DNA from: Syntrophales bacterium
GTDB lineage: Bacteria > Desulfobacterota > Syntrophia > Syntrophales > UBA2210
Length of the DNA stretch: 64,000 bases
Direction of reading: 5' to 3'
NCBI GenBank assembly: GCA_963664485.1
Contig: OY761459.1
Location: 709,275 to 773,274 of the forward strand
Shown here: in pieces, positions 3,514 to 26,456 of the stretch
Layout: every line of letters starts with the position of its first letter
How positions within the stretch are numbered: the stretch's first letter is position 1
Notes under the pieces: generated by a model
What the model saw: the letters and a program-made list of their open reading frames with translations, nothing else
What the model was told of the DNA's origin: nothing
The model's database searches: none
Position numbers and translations under genes: made by a program

Positions 3514-6192
3514 TCAGCTGCTCTTGGATTCCTTTTCAGTTATTGCGGGGAATGTGACGGTAAAGATAGTTCCCTCCCCCTCTTTACTGAGGAAGGTAAT
3601 CTTTCCTCCGTTGGCCTCTATGAGATTAAAGGTAATGGAGAGACCGAGGCCCGTTCCTCCTTCGGCCTGCCGTGACGTCACAAAGGGATCAAATATCTTG
3701 TCCGCGATGACGGGATCAACACCCCTGCCGTTATCCGAGATTGAGATGACCGCTCTTCCGGTTTTTTTCTGAAGCCGCGTGGATATGGTTATTTTGCCGT
3801 GATCATGGTTTATGGCCTGGGTTGCGTTGATCGCGATATTCATGATTATCTGTTCGATGCTCTGAAGGTTCCCTTCTATCACCGGCGTTTTTTTAGCCAG
3901 TTCAAGTTCCAGGAAGATATTCGACTTTTTGAGGGTTGTCTCTATGAGCCGCACGGCGGTTGTGACCGCGGTGTTTATTTCGATTGGTGTCTTATCCATG
4001 ACACTCGACTGCCGTGTAAAATTCTTCAAATTGCTTACGGTTTTTGCGACCCGGTTTGCAGCCAGGTCAATATCCGAAAGGAGCTGCGGCAAGTTTTTTT
4101 TGAGAAAATCGCAGGTGAGTCCTCCATACTTCTTGTCGGGATCCGTTTTAGCCTCTTTTTCCAGTACGGGGAGCGTATCGTGCCATACCTTCTGCAGCAG
4201 GGGCATATCGAACATGATCTTATTAATCGGATTATTGATTTCGTGGGCGACACCGGCTACAAGGGTCCCCAAAGCCTCCATCTTCTGCGCGTGCAGCAAT
4301 TGTAGTTCGAGTTGTTTCTTTTCTTGTTCCGATCGTTTTTGATCGGTAATATCTTCAATCATTGCGATAAAATAGAGAGGGTGCCCATTTTCATCATAGA
4401 CGACAGATGCTGTGGTATTTCCCCATATAATCTCTCTATCCTTTCTGATGTAGCGTTTTTGCGTCTTATAGTATGGTATGCGTCTTAGCAATAATTGCGC
4501 CACTTGTTTGAGGTCTTGCTCTCTATGCTCAGGATGGGTAATATCTATAAAGGAACTTCCCACCAATTCCACTTCATCATAACCCAGCAATCTGCAGAAC
4601 ATCGCATTGATGTGCTCAAACCGGGACTCGAGATCAAGAATTGCCATCCCGAGAGCACCCCCCTCAAAGACGGTGCGGAAACGTTCTTCGTTTTCCCTGA
4701 GTGCCTCTTCTGCCTTCTTGCGCTCCGTGATGTCTTCTCCATGGATAATAGTCGCGATCAATATCTTTTTCGGTTCCGCATAGATGTTTGCAGAGGTCCA
4801 CATCCCGATGCGCACCTTTCCATCTTTACGCAGAATCGGCATCTCCTGGACATGTAAATCTCCATCCCCTTTTTGTGCATGTGCGAGTTTCCGTAGTGAT
4901 TCCGAGCTACTGGCATCCGGAAACAATATCCCGAGCGGCTGCCCTACCATTTCCTTCTCGGTCCTCCCGCTCATTCTCTCAAAGGCCTCGTTGAAGATGG
5001 TTGTTTCCCCGTACCGGTCAAGGACAATTATCGGCGCGTTGGCACACCGTATAAGGTTGTTGAGATAATCGGTGGTTTCTCTGAGTTCCCTGGTTCGCTT
5101 TTGGACTTCACTCTTGAGAATGGTGGACCACCGGTAAGCGGAGAGGGATGAAAAAATGCCCGCTATGATGAGGAAGAGGATTATAAAGGCGAAGGTATTG
5201 AGCGCCTGGACTCCCGCCAATCGAATAATTCTATCGATTTCACTCACGGGTGCGACCACTGCAACAGACCAGATCTGATCAAGAACATAGACCGGAGAAT
5301 AGGCAATCAGTTTCTCGATCCGCCCGGCCTTACCCCGGTGCCAGCCGGACATATAGCGACCGATGCCTTCTTTGCCGGCCATAACTTTCTGCTGAATTTC
5401 GTTAATGGACTCATATGACAGTTCCGGGTTCCTTTTCTCCCTTGCCTTGAAGGCATCTTGACCAATGAATTCCTCCACATTGTGGGCGAGGAAATAACCC
5501 TCCTGATCCATCAACCAGGCGTATCCGGATTCACCCGATACAATAGGGGAGATAAAGATCTTTCCCACGGACCGAAGGTCAAAGGAAATGACGAGTATAC
5601 CCGCAAAACGCTTTTTTGAAGCACCCTGGTCGCTTTTCACGTATATAGGGGCGGACATCCGTATACGTTTTTCCCCCTCTTCGTTGGCCGTGATCCCGAA
5701 CATTTTGACGTGTCCCGCTTCCTTTGTGCTTACAAAATAAGGCTCCGCGCCATAGTTTCTGCCAACGAGGTCATCCCGCCAATCGTCGGAAGGGTATATG
5801 AACCGGAGAATGCCATGCTCGTCAAGGCGACGAATGGAGGTCCTCGGTATAAACCCCAGATACATGTTTTGCATATACTCGAGAGAATCGGGGGTCATAT
5901 GCTGGATTGCCGACACCTTCGTTGCCGATACAAGCGACGCCTTAATCTCGCTGAAATAGGTTTCAATCCCGGCAGCTGCCGATCGGGCAAGGATTAACTG
6001 GTGTTCATTGAACTGCTCGAGGGCGGTCTGCCGTGTTACATGAAAGGTTTGAATACCGAGAAAGGCCGTTATGCTTATGGCTACAATGGTTATGCTGAGG
6101 ATGATTATCTGGATCCAACAGGAAGGGTTTTTTACCTTCTCACTAGAAGAATTAACCTCCTGTTGATTGTCTCCGTCTATAGTATCGGTCAT
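3514..6192 (-). CDS. Sensor histidine kinase (TM - Cache-like periplasmic domain - TM - PAS - PAS - HisKA - HATPase)
   Basis: Two hydrophobic segments flank a roughly 290-aa extracytoplasmic region. Two PAS-like repeats are present (..IVLDRYGETTIFNEAFERMSG.. and ..MAILDLESRFEHINAMFCRLLG..). H-box VAGVAHEINNP. ATPase motifs DNGRGV and GGTGLGLS. The stop lies 1 nt from the response-regulator start. Confidence 0.9.
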   Translation of the reverse strand: MTDTIDGDNQQEVNSSSEKVKNPSCWIQIIILSITIVAISITAFLGIQTFHVTRQTALEQFNEHQLILARSAAAGIETYFSEIKASLVSATKVSAIQHMTPDSLEYMQNMYLGFIPRTSIRRLDEHGILRFIYPSDDWRDDLVGRNYGAEPYFVSTKEAGHVKMFGITANEEGEKRIRMSAPIYVKSDQGASKKRFAGILVISFDLRSVGKIFISPIVSGESGYAWLMDQEGYFLAHNVEEFIGQDAFKAREKRNPELSYESINEIQQKVMAGKEGIGRYMSGWHRGKAGRIEKLIAYSPVYVLDQIWSVAVVAPVSEIDRIIRLAGVQALNTFAFIILFLIIAGIFSSLSAYRWSTILKSEVQKRTRELRETTDYLNNLIRCANAPIIVLDRYGETTIFNEAFERMSGRTEKEMVGQPLGILFPDASSSESLRKLAHAQKGDGDLHVQEMPILRKDGKVRIGMWTSANIYAEPKKILIATIIHGEDITERKKAEEALRENEERFRTVFEGGALGMAILDLESRFEHINAMFCRLLGYDEVELVGSSFIDITHPEHREQDLKQVAQLLLRRIPYYKTQKRYIRKDREIIWGNTTASVVYDENGHPLYFIAMIEDITDQKRSEQEKKQLELQLLHAQKMEALGTLVAGVAHEINNPINKIMFDMPLLQKVWHDTLPVLEKEAKTDPDKKYGGLTCDFLKKNLPQLLSDIDLAANRVAKTVSNLKNFTRQSSVMDKTPIEINTAVTTAVRLIETTLKKSNIFLELELAKKTPVIEGNLQSIEQIIMNIAINATQAINHDHGKITISTRLQKKTGRAVISISDNGRGVDPVIADKIFDPFVTSRQAEGGTGLGLSITFNLIEANGGKITFLSKEGEGTIFTVTFPAITEKESKSS

Positions 6193-6241
6193 GCATCATT
6201 ACCTGATGTAGTTCACAAGACGTTGCATCTTCGTAAAAAGA

Positions 6242-6271
6242 AGTATACGCAGAAGGGAATTCCCATGTCAA
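6242..6271 (-). promoter_or_regulatory. Candidate sigma70 promoter for the kinase/regulator pair
   Basis: On the minus strand: TTGACA (6271-6266), an 18-nt spacer, then TATACT (6247-6242). It sits about 45 nt upstream of the kinase ATG at 6192. Confidence 0.4.
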
Positions 6272-6346
6272 TAAAATAGTGGCCACGGGAAATTGAGGAG
6301 GGGGTATAGAACAGACCCGGTCTCAGGGTGCAGGCAGAAGTTGCCA

Positions 6347-6895
6347 TCACATGTGTTCGTCTAACTCCGCAAGACCGTCTGCAACATTGCTTTTGATCAG
6401 GTTCAAGACCTCCATGTGATTGAGGGGCACATCACCGAGACCCTGTCGCAGTTCTCTTGTATCGAGGGAGTACACGTGCGAATTTTTTTTGTGGGTATAT
6501 ACGAAATCAACGACAGGGTTTCCAAGTATCAAGGCCCTTATTACTCCGGCGACATCACCCAGCGGCTGTCGATCGATATGGCTGTGTTTGAATTCGGCAT
6601 AAACCCTGGTGCCTTTCCCTACATCGGATTCAATGACGAATCTGCCGCCGGCTGCCTGCGCGGCCTGCGCAAGCATGGGCAACCCCAGGCCGACACGGCG
6701 GACTTTCTTTGTCGTATAGAAAGGATCCATGGTTCTTTCCAGGGTTTCCTTGTCCATACCGGTTCCATTGTCCCGTATCTCCAGACTGAACACATCATGC
6801 AGCAGATCTTCATTAACGGTTATCTCTACCAGGCTGGCCTCAGCCCTGGTCGAGTTTTCGGCTATATCAAGAATGTGAAGGGCCATTTCCATCAT
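6347..6895 (-). CDS. Stand-alone GHKL (histidine-kinase-like) ATPase with no DHp/His domain
   Basis: N-box HILDIAENSTRA, G1 DNGTGM, G2 GLGLPM. There is no transmembrane, HisKA or DNA-binding region. Length is 182 aa. Confidence 0.75.
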   Translation of the reverse strand: MMEMALHILDIAENSTRAEASLVEITVNEDLLHDVFSLEIRDNGTGMDKETLERTMDPFYTTKKVRRVGLGLPMLAQAAQAAGGRFVIESDVGKGTRVYAEFKHSHIDRQPLGDVAGVIRALILGNPVVDFVYTHKKNSHVYSLDTRELRQGLGDVPLNHMEVLNLIKSNVADGLAELDEHM

Positions 6896-6897
6896 AA

Positions 6898-7635
6898 TTA
6901 TTCGAAAACTTTTCTCCCGTCCTGTTTCATAAATGCCATTTTCAACTCTGCCACCGTAGGCTCCTGCATGCGTATCTTCGTGGATACACCGCCGATATCC
7001 CGAAGATAATGGGCATCGGACGATGTTATAAAGGCATATCGGGCAAGTTCAGGATAAGTTTTTCTCGCACCGGCGATGCTCATCCGGGATGAAATCTCCA
7101 GTGCGTCGAGCGCAACCGTGTCGGGTATAAACCCGAGTTGTCCCAGGACACTGAAACTTTCACGGTCGATATGAGCGGCCGCCGCCAGCCCCCCCAATTC
7201 ATGAATGCGTCGTACAACATCCTCAAGGGTTATATTGGTGGCCCCGATCAGCAATTTTTCGTTAAATCCCTCTACCTCGCCATGTTCGTTGACAACAACC
7301 TGGCATCCGAAAACATCTTCATCGTTGAGTCCTTCGAGGTGGTCGTAGATCGTTTCCTGGAGGGCGCGAAGAGGCTCGATTGTATCAAACCAGGCAAGCA
7401 CATGCGCCTCTTCCCGGGTGGTTACCTCCATTGCCGGCAGTACGACAAGCGGAGTGCCGATCGCCGCGGCCATCACATACTCAACGTTTTCCGAAGCATT
7501 ATGGTCTGATATCGCGATAACATCCAGTCCGCATTGTGTTGCCTCGCGAACAAGGGCCGAGGGGTGCATATCGAAATCGGCACAGGGAGAAAGACAGGTA
7601 TGCACATGAAGATTGCAATTAAAAATTTTCAGCAT
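6898..7635 (-). CDS. PHP-domain phosphoesterase
   Basis: NLHVHTCLSPCA near the N-terminus, then VIAISDHNASEN, ..AAAHIDR.. and ..TSSDAHY.. metal-ligand motifs typical of the PHP (polymerase/histidinol phosphatase) fold. Confidence 0.8.
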   Translation of the reverse strand: MLKIFNCNLHVHTCLSPCADFDMHPSALVREATQCGLDVIAISDHNASENVEYVMAAAIGTPLVVLPAMEVTTREEAHVLAWFDTIEPLRALQETIYDHLEGLNDEDVFGCQVVVNEHGEVEGFNEKLLIGATNITLEDVVRRIHELGGLAAAAHIDRESFSVLGQLGFIPDTVALDALEISSRMSIAGARKTYPELARYAFITSSDAHYLRDIGGVSTKIRMQEPTVAELKMAFMKQDGRKVFE

Positions 7636-7678
7636 GTCGGGAACGTCCGTAAAGCCGTTTGGTCGTGTCAGGCTTTAC

Positions 7679-8020
7679 TTATGCATCGTGGTGCATCAGA
7701 TGACAGATTTTACCAACCAGTTCGAATGCCGGAAGGCTGCTTAGAATAATTGGTATTCCTTCATCTTGAGCTTTTTCGAGAGTTTCTTTCTCCGGACTGG
7801 CATCCTGAACGATTATAATCCCGGCATGCTCTTTCAATGAAGCGACTGCCACGATATTCTGATGTACCTGGCGGGTTATCCAGAGATCCCCTTTTTTACT
7901 GTTGGCCATTACATCACTCAAAAGATCACCCACATAACCGCCGGTGATTTCCTTTTTGAGATTTTCCCAGCAACATTTACATTTCAGATCCAATTTTTCG
8001 ATGAAGAAATCCAGTGTCAT
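7679..8020 (-). CDS. DRTGG-domain protein
   Basis: 113 aa. EITGGYVGDLLSDVMAN...LWITRQVHQNIVAVASL...GIIIV matches the DRTGG-domain pattern. Confidence 0.65.
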   Translation of the reverse strand: MTLDFFIEKLDLKCKCCWENLKKEITGGYVGDLLSDVMANSKKGDLWITRQVHQNIVAVASLKEHAGIIIVQDASPEKETLEKAQDEGIPIILSSLPAFELVGKICHLMHHDA

Positions 8021-8038
8021 GATTCATATCCTCGAAAA

Positions 8039-8479
8039 CTATTGTTTACCATTGATATTAATAATACTTTTCAAGTATGTTCCCTTGCCGACATCGGATT
8101 GAATTTCAAAAACATCGGAGAATTTCCCGATATTCGACAGTCCCATTCCCGCTCCGAAACCCAGCTCACAAACCTCGGCATCGGCGGTCGAGTAACCTTC
8201 CTTCAGCGCCAGTTCAATATCGGCAATGCCTTGACCTTCATCTTTGGCTTCGATAATTATTGAATCAGGGAAAACCTCGAATTTTATAACACCCATTTTC
8301 GCATAAGATATGATATTGATCTCTGCCTCAAAAACAACAATCGATACTTTCCTGACAACCGTTTCTGAAATACCCCGAGCTTTCAATATCTTCTTGATTT
8401 CATTAGATACCCGCCCGGCATTCTGGAAACTGCGCCCTTCAATAATGTAACTGCCGTTATATTCACTCACTGTTTTCAC
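8039..8479 (-). CDS. RsbW/SpoIIAB-like GHKL Ser/Thr kinase ('anti-sigma regulatory factor' type)
   Basis: N-box EAEINIISYA, G1 DEGQGI, G2 GFGAGMGLSN. The start is uncertain. The tracked ORF extends to 8554 but would then overlap the upstream gene by 92 nt. A GTG at 8479 (VKTVSEYNG..) gives a 17-nt overlap instead. Confidence 0.7.
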   Translation of the reverse strand: MKTVSEYNGSYIIEGRSFQNAGRVSNEIKKILKARGISETVVRKVSIVVFEAEINIISYAKMGVIKFEVFPDSIIIEAKDEGQGIADIELALKEGYSTADAEVCELGFGAGMGLSNIGKFSDVFEIQSDVGKGTYLKSIININGKQ

Positions 8480-8852
8480 AAATCGAATCTCTCGCGCAAA
8501 CTTCCTGGATACACCCGGAAACGCCTTTCTGAAAAAGCCTTCCGCATGTCTCAAACATGATATATTTTGTACTCAGAAGCGGTATCCCCAACTCATTGGC
8601 AATTTCGATGCTCTGATCCAGGGGCACCTTGCCGCGACAGAATATAATGGCCACAATATCGAGTGCATAGGCAGTACGCACGCATTGCGGAGTAACAAGA
8701 CCCGTTATAAGCAGACACCCGTGACGGGCAAATGCAAGAACATCACTCATGAGGTCTGCTCCGAAGGCTGTTTTTATATCGATTTGCAACTGATCGTCAG
8801 TCCCAACAATTACCCTAGCATCCAAAGTGTCGCATATTTCAGCCAGTTTCAC
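8463..8852 (-). CDS. DRTGG-domain protein (second paralogue)
   Basis: 129 aa. ..AFGADLMSDVLAFARHGCLLITGLVTPQCVRTA..DIVAIIFCRG fits the DRTGG-like pattern. GTG start preceded by GGGGG. Confidence 0.6.
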   Translation of the reverse strand: MKLAEICDTLDARVIVGTDDQLQIDIKTAFGADLMSDVLAFARHGCLLITGLVTPQCVRTAYALDIVAIIFCRGKVPLDQSIEIANELGIPLLSTKYIMFETCGRLFQKGVSGCIQEVCARDSICENSE

Positions 8853-8881
8853 GAGAACCCCCTCTTATGTCTAATTCGCTG

Positions 8882-8910
8882 TGACTAGCATATGCTATCG
8901 TGCATGTCAA
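8882..8910 (-). promoter_or_regulatory. Candidate sigma70 promoter for the DRTGG/GHKL/PHP gene set
   Basis: On the minus strand: TTGACA (8910-8905), a 17-nt spacer, then TAGTCA (8887-8882). It sits about 30 nt upstream of the GTG at 8852. The -10 element is weak. Confidence 0.3.
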
Positions 8911-9191
8911 CATAATCTGCAGATCGGAATCAAGGTTGGTAGCCTTACCATCTTGTTTTCACTAATCAATTCCTGTCTATGAAAATTTTAAACAAATCAT
9001 AAACCGGCTCGAGAGGGACAGCAATCGCGTGTCATGATACTACCGGGAGAAATATCATCTTTTATCAAGAATCAGTCTGCAAGAGTAATTATTGTTGAGA
9101 CAACGAGTGAGGCTATAATCAAAGGTTTGTCATATATCAGCCCTGCCGGCACCGTTGATAAGCGCCGCGATGCGCACGAACTTTAGAAAAA

Positions 9192-9310
9192 ATTGAATCT
9201 CCCCGCAACAAGTTGCGGGGAATCTCCGACTGTTAAGGAATTTTTCATTTTTTATTCGCTCGCTAACCCCGCCGCAAGCAGCGGGGAATGCGCTCGCTGT
9301 TCAGTTCAGG
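9192..9310. repeat. Intergenic hairpin-bearing repeat, copy A (composite, with an extra 34-nt module)
   Basis: 9192-9264 matches 26371-26443 at 72 of 73 positions. It contains the hairpin CCCCGCAAC-aa-GTTGCGGGG. 9265-9298 is an insertion carrying a second hairpin (CCCCGCCGC-aa-GCAGCGGGG) + GAAT and ending in a duplicated CGCTCGCT. Homology to copy B resumes at GTTCA. Confidence 0.9.
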
Positions 9311-9542
9311 ATTAACCTGTTTTCCCGATAAGTTATTTGTCGATACAACCGTCTTGCGTTACAGATTTCATCTTCTTTGTACTGCCAGACATAAAGAATC
9401 CAGGCTCAAAACAAGAGCCTGGATTCCGATACATACTCTATTCTGTTCTTATACGCTGATCTAGGGAGCCGGGCTTGCTATAATCCATACCACGGTGTCC
9501 CGAAGTGTTATATTCTTTATTTTTCTATCTGCAAACCATTCC

Positions 9543-12230
9543 TTAAGCTACTTTTTTTATTTTTACCGCACTTATTTTGTATTCAGGAATGTTGGCAACA
9601 GGATCAAACGCCGGGTTTGTAAGGCGGTTAACTGCGGCCTCACTATAATGGAACGGGATGAAGACAATTCCCTCTCCACATCGGTCATTTACCTCAGCAA
9701 AAACTTCGATGGTACCCCTGCGGGAAGTAATCGCAAGTTTATCACCCTGATTGACACCGAGTTTCACAGCATCGCCCGGATTAATTTCCACAAACACCTC
9801 CGGGGTTCTGGAAACGAGACCTCGGGACCTTCTACTCATAGTGGCGGTATGGAACTGATACAGGATTCTGCCTGTAGAGAGTATATATGGATACTCATCA
9901 TCAGGCATCTCGGCGGGTGGCTTATGTTCACAAACACTGAAAAGACCCTTGCCACGAGTAAATGCTGTTGAATGCAGAATCGGTGTCCCGGGATGCTCTA
10001 TATTGGGGCAAGGCCACGGTATACCAACATCTTGAATACGTTCATATGTGATACCCGCATAAGACACCGTTAATTTGTTTATCTCGTCCATGATCTCTCG
10101 TGCATTTGCGTACTTCCAGTCCGCACCTAGCTTGTTGGCTAGCATACTGATCACTTTCCAGTCAGGTTTTGCCTCCCCCGGTGCATCAACAGCCTTCCTG
10201 ATTAGCTGCACCCTTCTTTCCGTATTAGTAAACGTTCCGTCCTTTTCTACCCAGCATGCAGTGGGTAATACCACGTCAGCCAGTTCTCCTGTCTCATTCA
10301 GGAAGATGTCCTGAACAATCAGGAGATCAAGATTCTCGAAGGCCTTTTTCACATGATTTATATCAGGATCAGACATCATAGGGTTCTCACCCATGACATA
10401 CAGAGCTTTCAATGACCTATCGGCAGCAGCGTCGATTATCGCGGGTATTGTAAGACCCGGCTTTTCCGGAAGCGTTACGCCCCACGCATCTTCAAAAGGT
10501 TTCCTGTCAGCTGCCTCGGTTACCTTCTTATATGCAGGCAGATTCCCCGGAAGACATGCCATGTCGCAAGCACCCTGAACATTATTCTGCCCACGCAGAG
10601 GATTCACCCCTGTACCCGGCCGTCCGATATTACCGGTGAGCATAGCCAAGTTTGCACAGGATTTCACATTATCCGTTCCAACAGTGTGCTGCGTGATACC
10701 CATTGCATAAACAATGGCCGCCGCATCAGCTCCCGCGTACATCCGAGCTGCCGCCTTCAAATCTTCGGCAGAAACTCCGGTTATTTCTTCGACATACTCC
10801 GGCGTATATTTACCCACAGTCTCTTTTAAGGCATCAAAATTTTCCGTTCTTTCAGAGATAAAGTCGTTGTCTGCAAGACCTTCTTGAATTATGACATTCA
10901 TCAACCCGTTCAACAAAGCAATATCTGTTCCCGGAGTATGCCTTAGCTGTATTGTTGCAAACTTTGCAATTTCTATATTTCTGGGGTCGGCAAGAACAAG
11001 CTTGGCTCCTTTTTGTGTTACAGCTCTCTTGATAAAGGTGGAAATGACCGGATGATTCTCTGTAGTATTCGTCCCTATAATCAAGAAACAACGAGCCTCC
11101 TCTAAATCTGCGATAGAGTTCGTCATTGCTCCTGAACCGAACGCAGCGGCCAGACCGGCCACTGTTGAGCTATGTCAGAGCCGGGCACAGTGATCGACAT
11201 TGTTTGTTCCGATAACCGCCCGCATAAATTTCTGGAACAGGTAATTTTCCTCATTGGTACATCTTGCTGAGGAGAGGCCCGCAATCGCGTCCGGACCATT
11301 TTCCTGTTTGATCTTATTGAGTTTTTCCGCAACATATCCTATTGCCTCATCCCAACCGACTTCCTTCAGTTCTCCATCAACTCTGATCATCGGCGTTGTA
11401 AGCCTGTCTGGATGATCCACAAAATCGTATCCGAATCGTCCCTTTATACAAAGACTACCGTTATTTGGTGGCGGGGCACCTTCCCTTGGGGTTGTTACCT
11501 TTACTATCTTCCCTTCTTTCACATTCAGATCCATCTGACAGCCGACGCCACAGTATCCACAGGTAGTGCGAACTTTATCAAGATCGTTACCCCTGCCCTT
11601 AAAACGCCCCTGTTTTTCAAAGAGCGCTCCAACCGGACATATACGAACACACTCTCCACAAAAGACACAATCAGAATCTTCATATCGCAACCCAAACGCC
11701 GGGCCGACCGCAGCAGTCGGTCCTCTTCCGGTATAATCGAGCACCTGATTGACCTGTATTTCGTTACAGGCCCTCACACACAGGCCGCATAATACGCACT
11801 TGTTCATATCCCGAACGATCATCTCGTTGGCCTGTTCGTATTCCTTAACAGTCTCAGGCATACCAAAACGGGGAATATCGATGCCGAGTGCATAGACAAG
11901 ATCCTGCAGCACGCACTGTCCGCTGCTTTCGCAGGTAATACAATTATGGTGTCCCTGGGTCAGAAGCAACTCGACAGCCAGTTTACGCGCCTGTAAGACA
12001 CGCTTCGTGTTAGTATGAACGATCATGCCGTTTTCCGCAGGCATCGCACAGGAAGCAACGAGAGCCCTTGTCTTTTCCACTTCAACAACACATACCCTGC
12101 AGGCCCCAACGGGCTTTAATTGCTCATGGTGACACAGAACCGGTATATAAATGCCGTTATCCTTAGCTACTTCATATACGGTCTGCCCAGGTGTAAATTC
12201 AAATTCCCTATCATCTATGATTATACCCAT
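9543..12230 (-). CDS. fdhA: Formate dehydrogenase catalytic subunit, selenocysteine-containing (895 aa; TGA at 11175-11177 read as Sec), with NuoG/HydA-like N-terminal Fe-S domains
   Basis: ORFs 11175..12230 and 9543..11162 share one frame and are separated only by a TGA: ..[30 protein letters not shown]. N-terminus: a 2Fe-2S domain (CHHEQLKPVGACRVCVVEV), an HxxxC..C cluster and two CxxCxxCxxxCP ferredoxin motifs. This is followed by the molybdopterin 4Fe-4S motif (CGYCGVGC) and bis-MGD domains. Confidence 0.9.
11144..11164 (-). other. SECIS-like hairpin downstream of the fdhA UGA
   Basis: The mRNA reads UGA-CAUAGCUCAA-CAGUGGCC-GGUCU-GGCCGCUG. This gives an 8-bp stem (one G-U pair) and a 5-nt loop containing GGUC, starting 10 nt after the UGA. 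Confidence 0.6.
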
Positions 12231-12251
12231 GGGATTAATTCCTCCTTGTCT

Positions 12252-15200
12252 CTATTCTATCTCCGCGTCGCAACGCAAGCATCGGCAAGCTTCTTTGTAA
12301 GCAACTTCCTTCGAGTAACCCAGTTCTACTTCCTTGAAATTCGATGTTCTCTCAACAGTTTTCAATTCCGGCATTTCGGCTCTGGGTGTTTCTATCGTGT
12401 CTTCATCAACTTCAAACGGAATATCAATCTTTTCCTCGGGAGGCTCTTGATAGGCCGGTCCCCCGCTCTTTGCACGGAGATAACTGTCAATATCGATTGC
12501 AGCCTGATGCCCCATGGCAATAGCCTCAACCACCGTGGCTGGTCCGCTGGCTGCATCACCAGCAATAAAAACTCCTTCTGCGGTAGTTGCCGTTTTAGAC
12601 CCCTCGGCGATCTTGATACCGCCCCACTTGTTGCAACCGATTCCGGAATCCTCCGGGATAAAGGAGGTATCCGAATTCTGGGAAATCGCCGGCACTATCG
12701 TGTCTATGCTCAGCACAAATTCACTTCCTTCGATCGGTTTCGGACGGCGTCTGCCTGAACGATCAAATTCGGCCAGTCGCATCCTCTGACACTCGACACC
12801 GGTGACCTTTCCGGTTTCCCCGATAATTCTGACAGGGGCAACCAGATATTCAATCTTGACTCCCTCATGCTCGGCGGCCACTATTTCGTTTTCCCAGGCA
12901 GGCATGTCCTTGCGTTCGCGACGATAAAGTATCGTTACATTATTGGCACCAAGCCGTATCGATGTCCTGGCAGCATCGATTGCGGAATTACCACCACCGA
13001 CAATTGCCACATTGCTGCCGACCTTTACCTTATTGCCCAGGTTGACCTCACGCAGGAATTCGGTAGCCCCCCAGACTCCTTCAAGATTCTCACCTTCAAC
13101 GTCCAGGGCCCAGCTTTTGTGAGCACCGATCGCCAACATTACGATATCGAAATCCTTGCGAAGTTCGCCATAGGTAATTTCCCGTCCAATCCTGATGTTG
13201 GTCTTGATCTCCACCCCCAGGGCTTTAATATCCGCAACCTCACTATCGACGATATCCCGCGGCATACGATATTCGGGGATTGCATAACGCATCATTCCAC
13301 CGGCATACGGTAATTCTTCAAATACCGTAACTTTGTAACCGCGTTTTGCCAGATCCTGAGCGGCTGTCAATCCGGCCGGACCGGCCCCGACAATGGCTAT
13401 TGTCTCATTACGAGTAACCGGGACCCTTTCCACCTTCGGATGATTGCTGTTATCTGCGATAAAACGCTTGATCCAGGCAATCGCCATCGGCTCATCCAGT
13501 TGTCCGCGACGGCATTTGGAGGCACAGAACTGCGGGCATACCCGGCCGCATACACCGGGGAAAGGATTGGTACGTTTCATGACTTTGTAGGCATCGTCCA
13601 GTCTGTCGGCTCTCACGAGCGCGATGTAAGCCGGAACATCCATCTCTATCGGGCAGGCATGCTGACAGGGAGACTTGAACATATCAGAACATACACACGC
13701 CGGACATTTCTTGTCATAGATGTGGGCCTCGTATTCATCCCTGAAATACCGGATAGTCGACAGTATCGGATTCGGCGCCGTCTGACCCAACCCGCACAGG
13801 GCCGAGTCCTTGATCGTTACCGCCAGGTCTTCCAGCATCTCGATATCACCGTGTTTTCCTTCACCCCTGCAGATCCTTTCAAGAATCTCGAGCATCCTTT
13901 TGGTACCTTCACGGCAGGGAGTACATTTACCGCAGGATTCCTCCTGGCAGAACTCCATGAAAAACCGTGCCGTATCAACCATACAGGTGTCTTCATCCAT
14001 AACGATGAGGCCACCGGAACCCATGATAGCACCCATCTTGATAATATCTTCATAATCGGTGAGCGTGTTAAGCCCCTCGGCCGGGATACATCCGCCGGAC
14101 GGACCGCCAAGCTGTGCGGCCTTGAACTGCTTTCCTCCCGGAATACCTCCGCCGATATCGAAAATGATGTCCCCCATAGGCGTTCCCATGGGAACTTCGA
14201 CCAACCCTACATTATTTACCGCACCGGTAAGGGCGAACACCTTAGTTCCCTTGGATCTTTCGGTTCCGATCGAAGAATACCAGTCGCCGCCTTTAAGGAT
14301 TATCTGTGCCACGTTGGCATAAGTTTCAACATTGTTCAGGACAGACGGTTTTCCCCAGAGACCCTTGTTAGCGGGAAATGGCGGACGCGGACGCGGCATC
14401 CCGCGTTTTCCTTCGATGGAATTCATCAAGGCTGTCTCCTCACCACATACAAATGCGCCGGCGCCCTGATAGATCTCTATATCGAGACTGTACCCGGTAC
14501 CGAGAATATCATCGCCCAGTAAACCGTATTCCTTAGCCTGCTTGATCGCAAGTGTAAGCCGCTTAATTGCCAGCGGGTACTCGGCACGGCAATAGATATA
14601 CCCCTTGTGCGCGCCGATGGTATATCCTCCGATGATCATACCTTCCAGTACCGCATGAGGGTCGGCTTCCAGGATGGACCTGTCCATGAACGCTCCAGGG
14701 TCACCTTCGTCGGCATTACAGAGGATGTATTTGACATCACCCTGGGCTTTCTGAGCGAACGACCATTTTAACCCGGTCGGGAATCCTCCGCCACCACGGC
14801 CGCGCAGCCCCGATTTTTTCATCTCTTCGACAACTTCTTCGGGCGTCATCTGAGTCAATACCTTAGCCACTGCCATATAGCCGTCACGTGCGATATATTC
14901 GTCAATCTTCTCCGCGTCGATCAAGCCTCTGTTTTTCAGGGCAATGAGCTTCTGCTTTCCGAAGAATGGGATATCCAGCATATGAGGAATGGCCTCTTCG
15001 GTAATCGGTTCTTTAAACATCAACCGCTCGACCGGACGACCTTTAACGATATGTTCTTCGATAATCTCAGGCACATCTTCCTTTGTTACGTACTGGTAGA
15101 ATGTCCCTTCCGGATATATCACCATTATCGGGCCGGCAGCACAAAAGCCGTTACATCCCGTTTCAACAACCACGACCTCTTCGGTGAGCCCTCTGGTCGC

Positions 15201-15296
15201 AAGTTCTTGCACAAGTGCTGCGTGGATTCCTTCGCTGCCGGTCGCACGGCAACCGGTTCCACCACAGATTAGTATGTGTGCTCGAAAAACCTTCAT
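12252..15296 (-). CDS. NuoF-like (FMN/NADH, 4Fe-4S) subunit fused to a GltD/NfnB-like FAD/NAD(P)H oxidoreductase module (1014 aa)
   Basis: N-terminal thioredoxin-like 2Fe-2S module (ILICGGTGC..GCNGFCAAGP). NuoF motifs GRGGGGFPTGLKW, NADEGDPGAFMDR and ESCGKCTPCREG. Then NPFPGVCGRVCPQFCASKC, IAIVGAGPAGLTAAQDL and VAIVGGGNSAIDAART, which are the GltD-type Fe-S motif plus two Rossmann dinucleotide folds. Confidence 0.88.
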   Translation of the reverse strand: MKVFRAHILICGGTGCRATGSEGIHAALVQELATRGLTEEVVVVETGCNGFCAAGPIMVIYPEGTFYQYVTKEDVPEIIEEHIVKGRPVERLMFKEPITEEAIPHMLDIPFFGKQKLIALKNRGLIDAEKIDEYIARDGYMAVAKVLTQMTPEEVVEEMKKSGLRGRGGGGFPTGLKWSFAQKAQGDVKYILCNADEGDPGAFMDRSILEADPHAVLEGMIIGGYTIGAHKGYIYCRAEYPLAIKRLTLAIKQAKEYGLLGDDILGTGYSLDIEIYQGAGAFVCGEETALMNSIEGKRGMPRPRPPFPANKGLWGKPSVLNNVETYANVAQIILKGGDWYSSIGTERSKGTKVFALTGAVNNVGLVEVPMGTPMGDIIFDIGGGIPGGKQFKAAQLGGPSGGCIPAEGLNTLTDYEDIIKMGAIMGSGGLIVMDEDTCMVDTARFFMEFCQEESCGKCTPCREGTKRMLEILERICRGEGKHGDIEMLEDLAVTIKDSALCGLGQTAPNPILSTIRYFRDEYEAHIYDKKCPACVCSDMFKSPCQHACPIEMDVPAYIALVRADRLDDAYKVMKRTNPFPGVCGRVCPQFCASKCRRGQLDEPMAIAWIKRFIADNSNHPKVERVPVTRNETIAIVGAGPAGLTAAQDLAKRGYKVTVFEELPYAGGMMRYAIPEYRMPRDIVDSEVADIKALGVEIKTNIRIGREITYGELRKDFDIVMLAIGAHKSWALDVEGENLEGVWGATEFLREVNLGNKVKVGSNVAIVGGGNSAIDAARTSIRLGANNVTILYRRERKDMPAWENEIVAAEHEGVKIEYLVAPVRIIGETGKVTGVECQRMRLAEFDRSGRRRPKPIEGSEFVLSIDTIVPAISQNSDTSFIPEDSGIGCNKWGGIKIAEGSKTATTAEGVFIAGDAASGPATVVEAIAMGHQAAIDIDSYLRAKSGGPAYQEPPEEKIDIPFEVDEDTIETPRAEMPELKTVERTSNFKEVELGYSKEVAYKEACRCLRCDAEIE

Positions 15297-15307
15297 CTGA
15301 TCCCCCT

Positions 15308-15688
15308 CTAATCCTGTTCCCTGCCCCGGGCCATTACAAAATCCGACTGGATTTCGTCATTCATAATATGTCTTTTGAAAATCTGCCGCGCCTTGTTAGA
15401 CGTCAGATATTCATAAACAATAGGATCCTTGCCCTGTTCCTCTACTGTCGCAAGCGGCTCCTTGCTACAGATACCGATACATCCAGAGGTGGTAACGATA
15501 ACATCTTCTGAATTACTCTCACCAACCTCTTTTATAAAAGTGTCAAGAATCTCTTTGGCTCCGGAGGCAATCCCGCAGGTTCCCATATGAACGGTAATCT
15601 TGAAGCGTTTATTACCGATCCTGAATTGATCTTCTTTTTCAACCCGTTCTTTTATCTTTTTTAAATCATCAATGGTAAGTTTAGCCAT
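15308..15688 (-). CDS. Thioredoxin-like [2Fe-2S] ferredoxin-domain subunit
   Basis: ITVHMGTCGIASGA...TTSGCIGICSKEP shows the Cys pattern of the NuoE/HydC-type 2Fe-2S fold. I prefer the start at ATG 15688 (MAKLTIDD) because AGGAGG lies 6 nt upstream. The tracked start at 15715 would overlap the upstream gene. Confidence 0.75.
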   Translation of the reverse strand: MAKLTIDDLKKIKERVEKEDQFRIGNKRFKITVHMGTCGIASGAKEILDTFIKEVGESNSEDVIVTTSGCIGICSKEPLATVEEQGKDPIVYEYLTSNKARQIFKRHIMNDEIQSDFVMARGREQD

Positions 15689-15698
15689 TTCATTCCTC

Positions 15699-16205
15699 CT
15701 AGCTGTACTGGGCAAGCAGTTGCTCCAGTTTTGCCGGTTTCACCCTTCCATGAGTATCGTCGTCGACTACCACCACAGGTGCCAGCCCACAGGCTCCCAG
15801 GCACCGCACGGTTTCCAGAGAAAACATCCTGTCCTGTGTACAATGCCCGCTCTCGATGCCGAGAATCCCACTGCACCGTTCCAGACTCCTCTTCCCGCCC
15901 CTGACATAACAGGCGGTTCCGAGACAGACCCTGATAACGTGTTTTCCTCGGGGAACCATCGTGAAAAATGAATAGAAGGTGACAACTCCGTAAACGTTTG
16001 CCACCGGCAGGTTCAAACCTTTCGCGACCCGCGTTTGAATCGCCATGGGAAGATATCCGCATACATCTTGAACCCGCTCCAATACCGGGATTAAAGCGCC
16101 GGGCTTACCTGCGTATTTCTCGATAATTTCATCAACTCGAGCCAATTGCTCCGCAGTAAAATCCGACAGTTCCGCATTTACTTGAGATGCATTTTTATCT
16201 GTCAC
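15699..16205 (-). CDS. NuoE-like (24-kDa type) [2Fe-2S] subunit
   Basis: ..VIRVCLGTACYVRGG...ETVRCLGACGLAPVVVVDD.. matches the NuoE/HydC cluster motif. GTG start preceded by GGGGG. Confidence 0.88.
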   Translation of the reverse strand: MTDKNASQVNAELSDFTAEQLARVDEIIEKYAGKPGALIPVLERVQDVCGYLPMAIQTRVAKGLNLPVANVYGVVTFYSFFTMVPRGKHVIRVCLGTACYVRGGKRSLERCSGILGIESGHCTQDRMFSLETVRCLGACGLAPVVVVDDDTHGRVKPAKLEQLLAQYS

Positions 16206-16252
16206 TTTATCCCCCTTATCTGATAGCTGTTAAGCTGTTATTTTTCAACGGC

Positions 16253-16296
16253 CCTATAACACGCATCGCTGATCCTGGCAAGCATAATTTAAGCCC
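16253..16296 (-). promoter_or_regulatory. Promoter region of the FDH operon, with overlapping sigma70-like and weak sigma54-like candidates
   Basis: Minus strand, sigma70-like: TTGCCA (16281-16276), 17-nt spacer, TATAGG (16258-16253). Minus strand, sigma54-like: GGGCTTAAATTATGCT (16296-16281) has GG-N10-GC spacing but a poor match outside GGC/TGCT. Confidence 0.3.
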
Positions 16297-16459
16297 GTTT
16301 ATAATTGTAATGTGTCTAAATATAATCAGTTACAAAAGCATAAAAGTAAAGTCCGCTCCGTACATCGACACAAGAACACAGCACACCCTTTAACGCGGAC
16401 GGCTATGGAGTACAACAAACCGGAAAAGATCTGAGATTTTATTCTGTTAATGTTAATTG

Positions 16460-16861
16460 CTACTTGCGTTTTCCTCTGAAGGGGGCAATCTCTCCGATAA
16501 AAATACCCACCTGGATTCCCACACATCCGAGAAACAAACCGATTATTGTAGAAACAGCATAGAACGTATCTACCGCAACGGAAGGCACGACGGTAACACC
16601 GGCAAATATGAGCAGAAAAACAAAGATACCGGCCGCCACATAGCTGGGACGTGAAGGTGCAATCTTTACGGCGACAAAGGTGGTTACCGCACCCAGGTAC
16701 AGGTACGCCGCAGCATCCATGATTATCTTCATTAAACCTTCGGGTGGATGGCCCGTGAGCAGATCAACCGAAAAGTTATTAACAGCGCCACCGATGGCAT
16801 ATGCGACATATCCGCAAATAACGGATACCGGAAAAAATAAGATCCAACGAACGATTTGCAT
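16460..16861 (-). CDS. Small integral membrane protein, four predicted TM helices, unknown function
   Basis: 133 aa with four hydrophobic stretches (ILFFPVSVICGYVAYAIGG; AAAYLYLGAVTTFVAV; VAAGIFVFLLIFAGVTVV; IIGLFLGCVGIQVGIFIG). I recognise no family motif. Confidence 0.5.
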   Translation of the reverse strand: MQIVRWILFFPVSVICGYVAYAIGGAVNNFSVDLLTGHPPEGLMKIIMDAAAYLYLGAVTTFVAVKIAPSRPSYVAAGIFVFLLIFAGVTVVPSVAVDTFYAVSTIIGLFLGCVGIQVGIFIGEIAPFRGKRK

Positions 16862-17361
16862 TCACAACCCTCCGCATTTGCTGTATATCGCAAGCAGTAT
16901 TGTAACAACTAACAGAACTTCTATCTTATGAATAAATCTCAGCAAATATAACAAGAAAAAAAATATATACAAAAAAACGGACGTATTATGGCAGAAACAG
17001 GAAGCAGCGTAAAGAATATATTTTTCAGAAAAGCCGATCCTTATGATTGAACAACCTTTTTCCCGGTAAGGTTTTTGCGTATATATAATGACATCATCAC
17101 GTATATGAATTGTGCAAAAGATCCGCACTGAGGCGCGTGCAGGAAAAACATGTGGGCTCCCGATCTTTCCACATTCAACGCCGTAATCCTTGTTTCGCTG
17201 CATGCGTTAAGCCCCTTAATATAAGAAACATTCTCAAGGCATATGTATGCTTCTTATTTTTTCACGGCAATTACACTGGACTGAACAATTGGAACAGGGT
17301 TTTCTAATGATCCGGGAACACCGGGAATACCGGTTGACACGGGAGAAAGATATTTCTCCCG

Positions 17362-18183
17362 TTACTTTCCGGTAAAATGAGGTTTTCTCTTCTCGGCAAA
17401 AGCGGTGAACGCTTCCGTAAGATCGTCCGAGGGGATAATATTGGAACTGATAGCGGCAACATAGCGAAGGCCGTCATCCACGGATTTGCCGACCCCGTAA
17501 TTCAATACCATTTTCGATGCCTGTACCGCCAACGGGGATCCTTCGGCAATCTCCATCGCCAGTTTCTGTGCCCCGCTAATCAATTCTTCGTAACTTCCGT
17601 ATACCTCGTTGACCAGCAGAATCTCCTTCGCGCGCGAGGCGTCTATATCTCTGGCACTGAAGGCAAGCTCCCTTGCAATGCCCTGCCCCACGATGAGCGG
17701 TATCCGTTGCAGTACACCCACATCAGCCACAAAGCCGATGGCGGCTTCTCTCAGCGAAAAGACCGCATCTTCCGCGCACAGCCTGATGTCGCAGGCGGTT
17801 GCCATGTCAAGCCCCGCACCGATGCAATACCCATGAATGGCGGCAATAACGGGTTTACGGCATTTCTCGATGCATGTCATGGTGTCCTGCAGGGGATATA
17901 TCCTTGAAAGAAGGCTCCATTTTATCCCGCCTTTCTGGTTATTATCGACAATCTCCGGCACGGCACCTATCATATCGATGAGATCGATTCCGGTTGTGAA
18001 ACACGACCCCTTGCCGCTTATAACGATCACCCTGATGCCCGGGTCTTTATCGAGATCTTCGAATATCGGGATGGTCTCCCTCCAGGCCGGCTGGTTCATC
18101 GCGTTCTTTTTTTCAGGTCGATTGAGGTATACCCACGCCACGGGCGGTTTCTTTTCCACGAGATAATATTCATACTTCTCCAT
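17362..18183 (-). CDS. Enoyl-CoA hydratase/isomerase (crotonase) family, dienoyl-CoA-isomerase-like
   Basis: ..LNRPEKKNAMN.., ..ISGKGSCFTTGIDL.., ..PVIAAIHGYCIGAGLDMATACDIR.. and ..ADVGVLQRIP.. are crotonase oxyanion-hole and fold motifs. Confidence 0.85.
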   Translation of the reverse strand: MEKYEYYLVEKKPPVAWVYLNRPEKKNAMNQPAWRETIPIFEDLDKDPGIRVIVISGKGSCFTTGIDLIDMIGAVPEIVDNNQKGGIKWSLLSRIYPLQDTMTCIEKCRKPVIAAIHGYCIGAGLDMATACDIRLCAEDAVFSLREAAIGFVADVGVLQRIPLIVGQGIARELAFSARDIDASRAKEILLVNEVYGSYEELISGAQKLAMEIAEGSPLAVQASKMVLNYGVGKSVDDGLRYVAAISSNIIPSDDLTEAFTAFAEKRKPHFTGK

Positions 18184-26370: not shown

Positions 26371-26456
26371 ATTGAATCTCCCCGCAACAAGTTGCGGGGA
26401 ATCTCCGACTGTTAAGAAATTTTTCATTTTTTATTCGCTCGCTGTTCATTTCAAGG
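26371..26456. repeat. Intergenic hairpin-bearing repeat, copy B (simple form)
   Basis: 26371-26443 matches 9192-9264 at 72 of 73 positions. The only difference is A at 26417 against G at 9238. It lacks the 34-nt module of copy A. The GTTCATTTCAAGG tail resembles GTTCAGTTCAGG at 9299-9310. Confidence 0.9.

Follow-up and report, generated by a model that had tools for sequence, protein, structure and literature searches.

We analysed a 64-kb stretch of contig OY761459.1 from a Syntrophales bacterium (hereafter the window), in which five co-directional minus-strand genes follow the operon of a NuoE/NuoF-type formate dehydrogenase (FDH). In order, they encode a stand-alone DRTGG-domain protein (DRTGG1), a SpoIIAB/RsbW-like GHKL protein (GHKLa), a paralogue of the first protein (DRTGG2), a PHP-family protein (PHP) and a second GHKL ATPase (GHKLb); we refer to these genes together as the cassette. 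Their coordinates and spacings, and the motifs quoted for them in an initial annotation of this DNA, are all correct in the open reading frames (ORFs) and translations (Table 1). GHKLa has three candidate starts (TTG 8554, GTG 8479 and GTG 8470); with GTG 8479, its gene overlaps the 3′ end of the DRTGG1 gene by 17 nt, and the intervals that follow are 18, 43 and 2 nt. The placement of the cassette "directly downstream of fdhA" needed correcting: it begins 690 nt downstream, behind a gap that contains no gene.

Table 1. Features of the cassette, the enzyme operon and the adjacent regulatory genes in the window
Feature	Position	Strand	Basis
NuoE	16205-15699	-	Pfam
2Fe2S ferredoxin, thioredoxin-like	15715-15308	-	Pfam
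NuoF-GltD fusion, 1014 aa	15296-12252	-	Pfam
Selenocysteine FdhA	12230-9543	-	Pfam; in-frame TGA 11177-11175
Gap between fdhA and cassette, 690 nt	8853-9542	-	Non-coding
DRTGG1, 129 aa	8852-8463	-	Pfam DRTGG, E 2.6e-9
GHKLa, SpoIIAB/RsbW-like	8479-8039 (start uncertain)	-	Pfam HATPase_c_2, E 3.4e-6, 27.5 bits (cut-off 27.4)
DRTGG2, 113 aa	8020-7679	-	Pfam DRTGG, E 4.7e-5, just under cut-off
PHP, 245 aa	7635-6898	-	Pfam PHP, E 1.1e-5, 26.3 bits (just under cut-off 26.4); PHP_C, E 3.7e-5, 23.6 bits (above cut-off 21.3)
GHKLb, 182 aa	6895-6347	-	Pfam HATPase_c, E 1.6e-15
Sensor kinase, dCache_1 + 2xPAS-HisKA-HATPase, 892 aa	6192-3514	-	Pfam
Sigma-54 (NtrC-type) response regulator	3512-2124	-	Pfam

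The domain content agrees with the initial annotation. By Pfam, none of the five proteins contains a receiver or DNA-binding domain, and GHKLb has HATPase_c alone, with no HisKA or HPt domain for His-phosphotransfer. There is also no convincing transmembrane segment: the highest Kyte-Doolittle 19-residue means are 1.36-1.65, and the top value belongs to PHP, which is modelled as a globular barrel. With no DHp/HisKA domain carrying a phospho-accepting His in GHKLb and no receiver among the five proteins (Pfam), the set does not constitute a two-component histidine kinase system. No curated NCBIfam model reached its cut-off for any of the five, and an exact-match look-up of the PHP sequence returned a single 1.6-kb contig.

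The enzyme operon (16205-9543 as a whole) runs on the minus strand in the order NuoE, 2Fe2S, NuoF-GltD, FdhA. In the ORF list, fdhA appears as two in-frame ORFs (351 aa and 539 aa) because of its in-frame TGA. A SECIS_3 match lies directly on this codon (11180-11122, minus strand; 40.4 bits, E 1.9e-6, short of the Rfam gathering score of 63), and we therefore read FdhA as a single selenocysteine enzyme. The NuoF-GltD protein joins a NuoF homologue to a GltD-type pyridine-nucleotide-disulfide oxidoreductase (NAD(P)H/FAD) module with a Fer4_20 domain, which implies a second NAD(P)H/flavin site in the FDH complex, as in Stn/Nfn-like enzymes. The same fusion is found with the cassette at almost every Syntrophales locus and also in Desulfotomaculum.

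The cassette is conserved beside NuoE and NuoF

Relatives of PHP fall into 5331 clusters at 90% identity (E ≤ 1e-5) and 707 clusters at 50% identity (E ≤ 1e-30), and at least 594 stretches of GTDB representative genomes, one per species, encode such a relative. We mapped the window proteins by phmmer onto the best 80 of these at least 594 stretches, all from other genomes and of the Syntrophales type, and the locus counts below refer to this set. The gene order DRTGG1, GHKLa, DRTGG2, PHP, GHKLb is kept almost everywhere, and its recurrence in 80 loci from other genomes is more than chance would give. In 56 loci the cassette lies directly upstream of NuoE-2Fe2S-NuoF_GltD, and in 9 it lies downstream of FdhA, as in the window; 11 stretches are too short to judge, and 4 have no NuoEF inside their flanks. 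A NuoE/2Fe2S/NuoF(-GltD) operon adjoins the cassette in 65 of the 69 informative loci, and a NuoE/NuoF-type operon does so in all six of the more distant contexts. The linkage to such operons, which the initial annotation had put forward and proposed to check by gene-neighbourhood co-occurrence, is thus borne out, with only 4 of the 69 informative loci lacking it, and the operon list of Halanaerobium agrees (PMC4237134).

What follows NuoF is more variable. In 16 loci the catalytic partner is HydA, which Pfam identifies as a true [FeFe] hydrogenase, in another 16 it is FdhA (7 of the upstream type and 9 of the downstream type), and no catalytic gene follows NuoF in L020, L034 and L066 (L-numbers denote loci) despite a 10-kb flank. 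Since the partner varies, the cassette follows the NuoE/NuoF module and not one catalytic subunit. The suggestion that it was recruited here to an FDH instead of a hydrogenase holds: these close relatives carry the same cassette with HydA, FdhA or neither. The closest genome (GCA_002327865.1, L082) has a layout identical to that of the window. We conclude that the five genes very probably form a conserved accessory cassette of NuoEF-type enzymes, by which we mean flavin-based, NADH-linked hydrogenases similar to HydABC and the corresponding FDHs.

Three of the four loci without NuoEF were inspected (L045, L072 and L077); all three lie beside a beta-carbonic-anhydrase-like gene, and L045 also has a formate-transporter-like gene. 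The carbonic-anhydrase-like gene (CxDSR...HxxCG) precedes the cassette in L045 (6737-8797), L072 (8032-8760), L077 (8058-8723), L002 (2088-3676) and also L065, and a transporter gene of the MFS oxalate/formate type or the FNT type precedes it as well in L045 and in L002/L065.

Some HydA-linked loci show further peculiarities. In two Smithella loci (L004, 15309-17138, and L012, 15354-17144), the HydA after NuoF-GltD has the H-cluster motif TSCSPGW and not TSCCPxW; we take the serine to stand at the position of the [4Fe-4S]H cysteine ligand (C300 in CpI). A GltD-HydA fusion in L039 keeps TSCCPAW. Directly upstream of the cassette in the same locus (8065-8610, minus strand) is a divergent short ORF of 130-180 aa with a histidine-kinase-type HATPase_c domain only, and a divergent HATPase_c ORF occupies this position in L040, L046, L052, L064, L068 and L081 too. 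With it, HydA-linked Smithella loci would have a third orphan GHKL protein.

A putative sensory hydrogenase gene and a two-part architecture

In L070 and L073, a 549-aa protein combines Fer4, Fe_hyd_lg_C, a C-terminal FeS motif and a DRTGG1-type domain, i.e., it is a HydS-like, putative sensory hydrogenase with DRTGG1 fused to its C terminus. Its C-terminal motif, Cx2Cx4Cx16C, is that given by Land et al. for the M2e/M2f putative sensory hydrogenases. Other contexts containing HydS were reached by a search with this 549-aa fusion and inspection of gene context. In Desulfotomaculum (L085) the order is DRTGG1, GHKLa, HydS-like, DRTGG2, PHP, GHKLb, NuoE, 2Fe2S, NuoF-GltD, HydA, and in Syntrophorhabdus (L087) it is DRTGG1, GHKLa, HydS-like, DRTGG2, PHP, with GHKLb apart, beside NuoE. 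Three divergent PHP representatives on metagenomic contigs, picked blind to their context (L091-L093; L093 shows only part of the order, on a 2.5-kb contig), gave DRTGG1, GHKLa, HydS-like, DRTGG2, PHP, NuoE, GHKLb, 2Fe2S, HydB, HydA. It is therefore well supported that the canonical order is DRTGG1, SpoIIAB-like GHKL, HydS, DRTGG2, PHP, NuoE, GHKL, 2Fe2S, NuoF, HydA, where HydS is a putative sensory [FeFe] hydrogenase of the M2e/group D type by its sequence motifs.

No HydS-like gene or HydA occurs anywhere in the 64-kb window (phmmer with HydS and with the HydA H-domain), and the GHKLa-DRTGG2 interval, where HydS stands in the canonical cassette, measures 18 nt only. It is well supported by these comparisons that the cassette of the window is a derivative lacking the HydS sensor gene, and that this HydS-less form is the norm in Syntrophales and Smithella.

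Fusions and retention patterns indicate how the remaining genes group. DRTGG2 is fused to the N terminus of PHP in L090 (P0465; 34% identity, E 1e-18), and PHP-GHKLb fusions occur in four separate 50%-identity clusters (P0382, P0384, P0406 and P0422). DRTGG2-PHP-GHKLb-NuoE is what is retained in L060, L069, L074, L081 and L090, and GHKLb adjoins NuoE even when it is split from the rest of the cassette (L087, L091-L093). We therefore divide the cassette into an input part, which is optional (DRTGG1, GHKLa and HydS), and a core beside NuoE (DRTGG2, PHP and GHKLb). The metagenomic locus L090 (6318-11475) consists of a sigma-54 response regulator, a TGGCACCGGTATTGCC site, the DRTGG2-PHP fusion, GHKLb, NuoE and a small protein of no known family, with divergent hydE/F/G maturase genes. 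The TGGCACCGGTATTGCC site (TGGCAC-N5-TTGC) lies 100 nt upstream of the DRTGG2-PHP gene; we read the locus as a minimal core cassette that is probably controlled by sigma-54.

DRTGG proteins and the SpoIIAB-like kinase

The two DRTGG proteins carry a shared, strongly conserved motif. DRTGG1 has the subfamily motif ADLMSDVLAFA (conservation over 89 sequences), and DRTGG2 has GDLLSDVM (over 80 sequences). D33 and S36 are invariant in DRTGG1, and they stay so after the addition of homologues from Firmicutes and Syntrophorhabdus and of the DRTGG2 paralogues; no more than six positions are invariant across both paralogues and across phyla, and they include D33 and S36, which belong to a D-L-x-S-[DE] motif (the serine is S35 in DRTGG2). 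In a profile search of solved structures with DRTGG, the top matches were spurious repeat proteins, and HprK, a CBS-pyrophosphatase and AF_1212 aligned over the C-terminal half only, so that the D-L-x-S motif cannot be placed on a solved DRTGG structure.

The closest solved relatives of GHKLa are SpoIIAB chains (E 3.6e-4), with no others found. Its ATP-binding boxes are intact (N-box E-x3-N, G1 D-x-G-x-G, G2 GFGAGMGL) and are kept in 74 sequences and in the Firmicutes homologues. The best NCBIfam match is spIIAB at 41.7 bits against a cut-off of 135, and RsbW scores 16 against 145 bits; GHKLa is thus an equivalog of neither. On these grounds it looks like a putative SpoIIAB-type Ser/Thr kinase. 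The gene is absent from L048, L058 and L062, which keep the remaining cassette genes.

PHP and GHKLb have unexpected structural affinities

PHP, a metal-dependent phosphoesterase by family, carries the full set of candidate metal ligands of its superfamily. H10, H12, D44, H45, E70, H78, H155, D207 and H209 are invariant in our alignment A1; they correspond to the H-x-H, D-H, E, H, H and D-x-H ligands that the superfamily carries on a distorted barrel. C7 and C18 flank the H-x-H motif, C18 standing six residues after it, a spacing at which other PHP enzymes (e.g., YcdX) carry a histidine ligand. The AlphaFold2 model (predicted local distance difference test score, pLDDT, 86.8) matches EndoQ (E 2e-11, query TM-score, TMq, 0.69), TM0559 and RNase AM best, with a probability of 1.00.

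In GHKLb, residues 1-105 form a HATPase_c domain of the NtrB/AtoS type. The 75-residue alpha/beta domain that follows at the C terminus is conserved as well, including D145, T146, R147 and R150. By sequence the ATPase domain is a histidine-kinase CA domain of the NtrB/AtoS type. In Foldseek searches with the AlphaFold2 model (pLDDT 86.6), the full-length matches are PMS2, MutL and Topo VI-B (TMq 0.46-0.56, E 1e-6 to 1e-5); histidine kinases match over ~100 residues only, and Hsp90 N-domains are among the weaker matches.

These affinities bear on three readings of the cassette other than a signalling circuit between proteins. In the first, DRTGG2-PHP-GHKLb would be an ATP-dependent assembly or repair device for the flavin and iron-sulfur module of NuoE/NuoF, e.g., for flavin loading or for the removal of damaged nucleotide cofactors by PHP. 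The two-domain, GHL-ATPase-like shape of GHKLb is compatible with such a role, as are the structural neighbours of PHP that hydrolyse nucleotides (RNase AM and the 3′,5′-bisphosphate phosphatase family). The core trio is also kept with NuoE in every lineage, co-oriented with and close to the enzyme genes, with GHKLb embedded among structural genes, and in L090 it lies downstream of the sigma-54-type site. However, maturation or repair does not readily account for a cassette that combines a SpoIIAB-like kinase with a sensory-type hydrogenase, and in four loci there is no NuoEF nearby. Active HydABC has been produced and purified, and we know of no reported need for cassette proteins in doing so. 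We therefore consider this reading quite unlikely.

A second possibility is that no protein is phosphorylated at all: the DRTGG proteins would be sensors for adenine nucleotides, NADH or an alarmone, and PHP would degrade the nucleotide signal. Elsewhere DRTGG domains do occur in nucleotide-regulated modules (CBS-pyrophosphatase, which is also an NCBIfam match, Pta and SpxR). In the HydS fusion, a PucR sensor domain is a further match to the DRTGG region, and PHP matches the 3′,5′-nucleoside bisphosphate phosphatase and RNase AM families, but all these family matches fall far below cut-offs. Moreover, in CBS-pyrophosphatases the nucleotides are reported to bind the CBS domains and not DRTGG, and the two GHKL proteins would be left unexplained. 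Small-molecule sensing of this kind strikes us as very improbable.

Third, the cassette could be a nucleic-acid enzyme or defence-type system, i.e., an EndoQ-like nuclease with a MutL-like ATPase, that merely lies beside redox operons. The structural matches to EndoQ and to MutL/PMS2/Topo VI-B point in this direction, as do weak NCBIfam matches between PHP and either TrlF or Ppl, an anti-phage protein. Those NCBIfam scores, however, are far below cut-offs, no Zn-ribbon or DNA-binding domain is present, and neither phylum boundaries nor rearrangements break the linkage to NuoE; by synteny, this reading is close to refuted. As a candidate in its own right, a defence system was rejected: PADLOC gave no match for four of the proteins and only marginal matches for PHP.

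Transcription and neighbouring regulators

Separate transcription of the cassette from fdhA, as proposed in the initial annotation, is plausible, although the two elements cited for it fared less well. The gap holds no ORF of 60 aa or more on either strand (a plus-strand ORF, 8685-8888, only reaches its edge), and it contains two terminator-like hairpins (9427-9395 and 9222-9199; terminator scan). The candidate promoter at 8910-8882 is weak: it has a perfect -35 box (TTGACA) and a poor -10 box (TG-n-TAGTCA), and it was not called by a consensus scan. The hairpin repeat is real and not locus-specific. Its 22-nt GC-rich palindrome, TCCCCGCAACAAGTTGCGGGGA, occurs at 9200-9221, 9266-9287 and 26379-26400 (three copies against 0.06 expected by chance in the window); because of the third copy we regard it as a generic element, either repetitive extragenic palindrome-like or a terminator, and rejected it as a regulator specific to this locus. 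Judging from the gap, the cassette, lying downstream of the FDH operon, probably has a transcript of its own.

The gap is 96% identical to that of L082. In the other loci with the arrangement of the window, it is filled by a conserved FNT-like (formate-transporter-like) or MFS gene, and by this comparison the window has lost the transporter gene. An Rfam search over 6000-17500 found the SECIS element as its sole match, with no riboswitch or small RNA in the 690-nt gap.

Behind the cassette lie genes for a sensor kinase and a sigma-54 response regulator (Table 1), the former preceded by the best sigma-70-like promoter site of the region (6271-6242, 11 of 12 matches). None of the nine other loci with the same arrangement has such a pair after the cassette; it stands there only in the lineage of the window (L082-L084), and similar kinase and regulator genes are found near the cassette elsewhere (e.g., L013, L015, L079 and L038). 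The two genes form a complete two-component pair of their own, probably independent of the cassette.

These regulators raise the question of whether the cassette itself could act on transcription, sensing H2, formate or redox state and controlling the adjacent operon. Either GHKLa would be a true anti-sigma factor whose target is encoded elsewhere in the genome, or GHKLb would be a NifL-like, nucleotide-bound anti-activator of a sigma-54 enhancer-binding protein. The likeness of GHKLa to SpoIIAB is in keeping with this, and the HATPase domain of GHKLb is closest to kinases of the NtrB/AtoS/ZraS type, which are partners of sigma-54 regulators, and also matches NifL. Sigma-54 response regulators adjoin the cassette in the window and in L090, where the sigma-54-type site lies upstream of DRTGG2-PHP, and HydS is assumed in the literature to regulate expression (PMC10055695). 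On the other side, the five proteins lack DNA-binding, DHp and receiver domains, and we saw no sigma factor gene among the neighbours scanned. Upstream of the cassette or nuoE in the window there is no sigma-54 promoter (two-mismatch matches are at chance level and wrongly placed); L090 alone has a good site. Regulator genes are not conserved as neighbours; what is conserved is that in most relatives the cassette has the same orientation as the enzyme genes and lies immediately beside them, with GHKLb even between structural genes. A transcriptional output is therefore unlikely.

Farther out, a hydrophobic 133-aa ORF (16460-16861, minus strand) lies ~250 nt upstream of nuoE; it belongs to no Pfam family and is called as a gene in L082 (36-437). 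The ten largest ORFs of the 17-36 kb region are housekeeping genes, none of them cassette-related (RND efflux, enoyl-CoA hydratase, AsnA, AsnRS, a beta-CASP nuclease and a cysteine desulfurase-like protein among them), and the 36-64 kb region was covered by the ORF listing and by the phmmer screen for HydS and HydA.

A proposed post-translational circuit

Our preferred reading is that the cassette is an ATP-driven, partner-switch-like circuit that acts post-translationally on the NuoEF flavin module; we give it a probability of roughly 45%. In this scheme, DRTGG1 and the SpoIIAB-like kinase would receive the signal, which could be H2 or redox state where HydS is present. The kinase would bind or phosphorylate a DRTGG protein, probably at the serine of the invariant D-L-x-S motif, and DRTGG2, PHP and the NuoE-adjacent GHKL ATPase would work as one physical unit in which PHP resets the phosphorylated or nucleotide-bound state. 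As output, the GHKL ATPase may act on the NuoE/NuoF flavin module after translation and so tune electron flow to formate or H2.

The initial annotation had already proposed a kinase/phosphatase or partner-switching circuit. Its putative kinase, GHKLa, is SpoIIAB-like with intact boxes; the proposal is weakened by the nearest relatives of PHP (EndoQ, TM0559 and RNase AM) and of GHKLb (MutL, PMS2 and Topo VI-B) and by the loss of GHKLa from three loci. Several observations count against the circuit that we favour. No STAS domain, PP2C phosphatase or sigma factor was found among the five proteins (Pfam), which are thus not a classical partner switch. The loci that lack GHKLa keep the DRTGG serine, so this residue need not be a substrate of GHKLa. 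The top 50 structural matches of the PHP model contain no protein phosphatase, being nucleases, nucleotide phosphoesterases and polymerase PHP domains, and GHKLb, being like MutL/Topo VI-B over its full length, would be an ATPase clamp more readily than a kinase. In several lineages the cassette has response regulators of the sigma-54 or LuxR type as neighbours, and a transcriptional output would fit this as well. Finally, to our knowledge, purified HydABC complexes do not contain cassette proteins.

A bolder version of the proposal is that the cassette represents a new kind of partner switch or phospho-relay, with DRTGG in place of STAS and PHP in place of PP2C, which would carry the HydS signal, or the redox state of the enzyme where HydS is missing, straight to a flavin-based NuoEF module, so that H2/formate production is switched post-translationally and not through transcription. 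We regard this as rather unlikely.

New here are the two-part architecture, the three fusions, the FDH-attached variant without a sensor, the invariant D-L-x-S motif and the unexpected structural affinities of PHP and GHKLb. Syntrophy, fermentation balance and acetogenesis depend on the H2 and formate levels that NuoEF-type hydrogenases and FDHs establish, and the cassette is a concrete candidate for a transduction pathway acting on these enzymes, with four protein families, a fixed gene order, diagnostic fusions and invariant residues that can be mutated. In syntrophs this candidate pathway persists without the sensor, on an FDH as well as on a hydrogenase. Through the cassette, stand-alone DRTGG proteins and a PHP subfamily of at least 700 clusters at 50% identity acquire a functional context that can be tested. 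Years of spectroscopy have been devoted to the sensory [FeFe] hydrogenases, and the cassette turns the question of their signal transduction into experiments that can be run directly.

Comparison with known systems

The closest known counterparts are the HydS clusters upstream of HydABC (M2e/group D and group C1), i.e., that of TamHydS in Thermoanaerobacter mathranii (PMC8163306), those classified in HydDB (PMC5037454) and the operon Halsa_1862-1871 of Halanaerobium hydrogeniformans, whose annotation list shows the same gene set as the canonical cassette (PMC4237134). They share with the window DRTGG, a SpoIIAB-like GHKL protein, PHP and a small HATPase_c protein, in the same placement next to NuoE/NuoF. 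The window differs in having no HydS, in its enzyme, which is a selenocysteine FDH with a NuoF-GltD fusion and not HydABC, in the location of the cassette downstream of the enzyme operon behind terminator-like hairpins, and in the position of GHKLb, which follows PHP and does not stand between NuoE and 2Fe2S. In the literature, this neighbourhood is treated as a putative H2-sensing cluster (PMC8163306, PMC5037454) and is known only from annotation lists and from "histidine kinase-linked (putative)" sensory hydrogenase classes (PMC5037454, PMC4237134). Of the cassette proteins, the literature on HydS clusters names "a histidine kinase-like ATPase" only; the literature searched contained no paper tying DRTGG or PHP proteins to NuoEF/HydABC operons and no mechanistic paper on DRTGG/PHP with a hydrogenase. 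The role proposed for the C-terminal cluster of sensory hydrogenases (groups C/D) in sensing and signal transduction is still called untested in a 2026 paper (PMC13104023).

The HydS cluster of Ruminococcus albus and hfsABCD of Thermoanaerobacterium (PMC5707799, PMC11837493) are similar in that H2 sensing is proposed around a non-catalytic [FeFe] hydrogenase paralogue that influences the redox balance of fermentation. As described, they are tied to a ferredoxin-dependent hydrogenase and not to NuoEF, and DRTGG/PHP proteins are not mentioned. They were rejected as equivalents, since the published descriptions give them a PAS-HydS together with a homologue of serine phosphatases (in R. albus also a Ser/Thr protein kinase).

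In structure, the GHKLb model comes closest to GHL ATPases (MutL/PMS2 and Topo VI-B) and the PHP model to the PHP enzymes EndoQ, TM0559 and RNase AM, at an identity of 14-18% only. The ATPase domain of GHKLb is nevertheless of the histidine-kinase type by sequence, and the cassette, which lacks DNA-binding, Zn-ribbon and endonuclease domains, stands in a context of redox metabolism.

The partner switches (SpoIIAA/AB/E, RsbV/W/U and RsbR/S/T/X) differ from the cassette in their components: it has DRTGG where they have STAS, PHP where they have PP2C and an extra, histidine-kinase-type GHKL protein with a C-terminal domain, and no sigma factor was found among the neighbours scanned. The points of likeness with RsbR/S/T/X and SpoIIAA/AB lie in the layout. 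The cassette contains a putative GHKL kinase of the SpoIIAB/RsbW/RsbT type, whose gene overlaps that of a preceding small alpha/beta protein; in spoIIAA-AB and rsbV-W, likewise, the antagonist gene precedes the kinase gene. It also encodes a pair of small paralogues, one of them joined to a sensor domain in other lineages (cf. RsbR), together with a metal-dependent phosphoesterase by which the switch might be reset. Since the STAS, PP2C and sigma components are absent, we describe the relation as a resemblance in working principle and not as membership in this group of systems.

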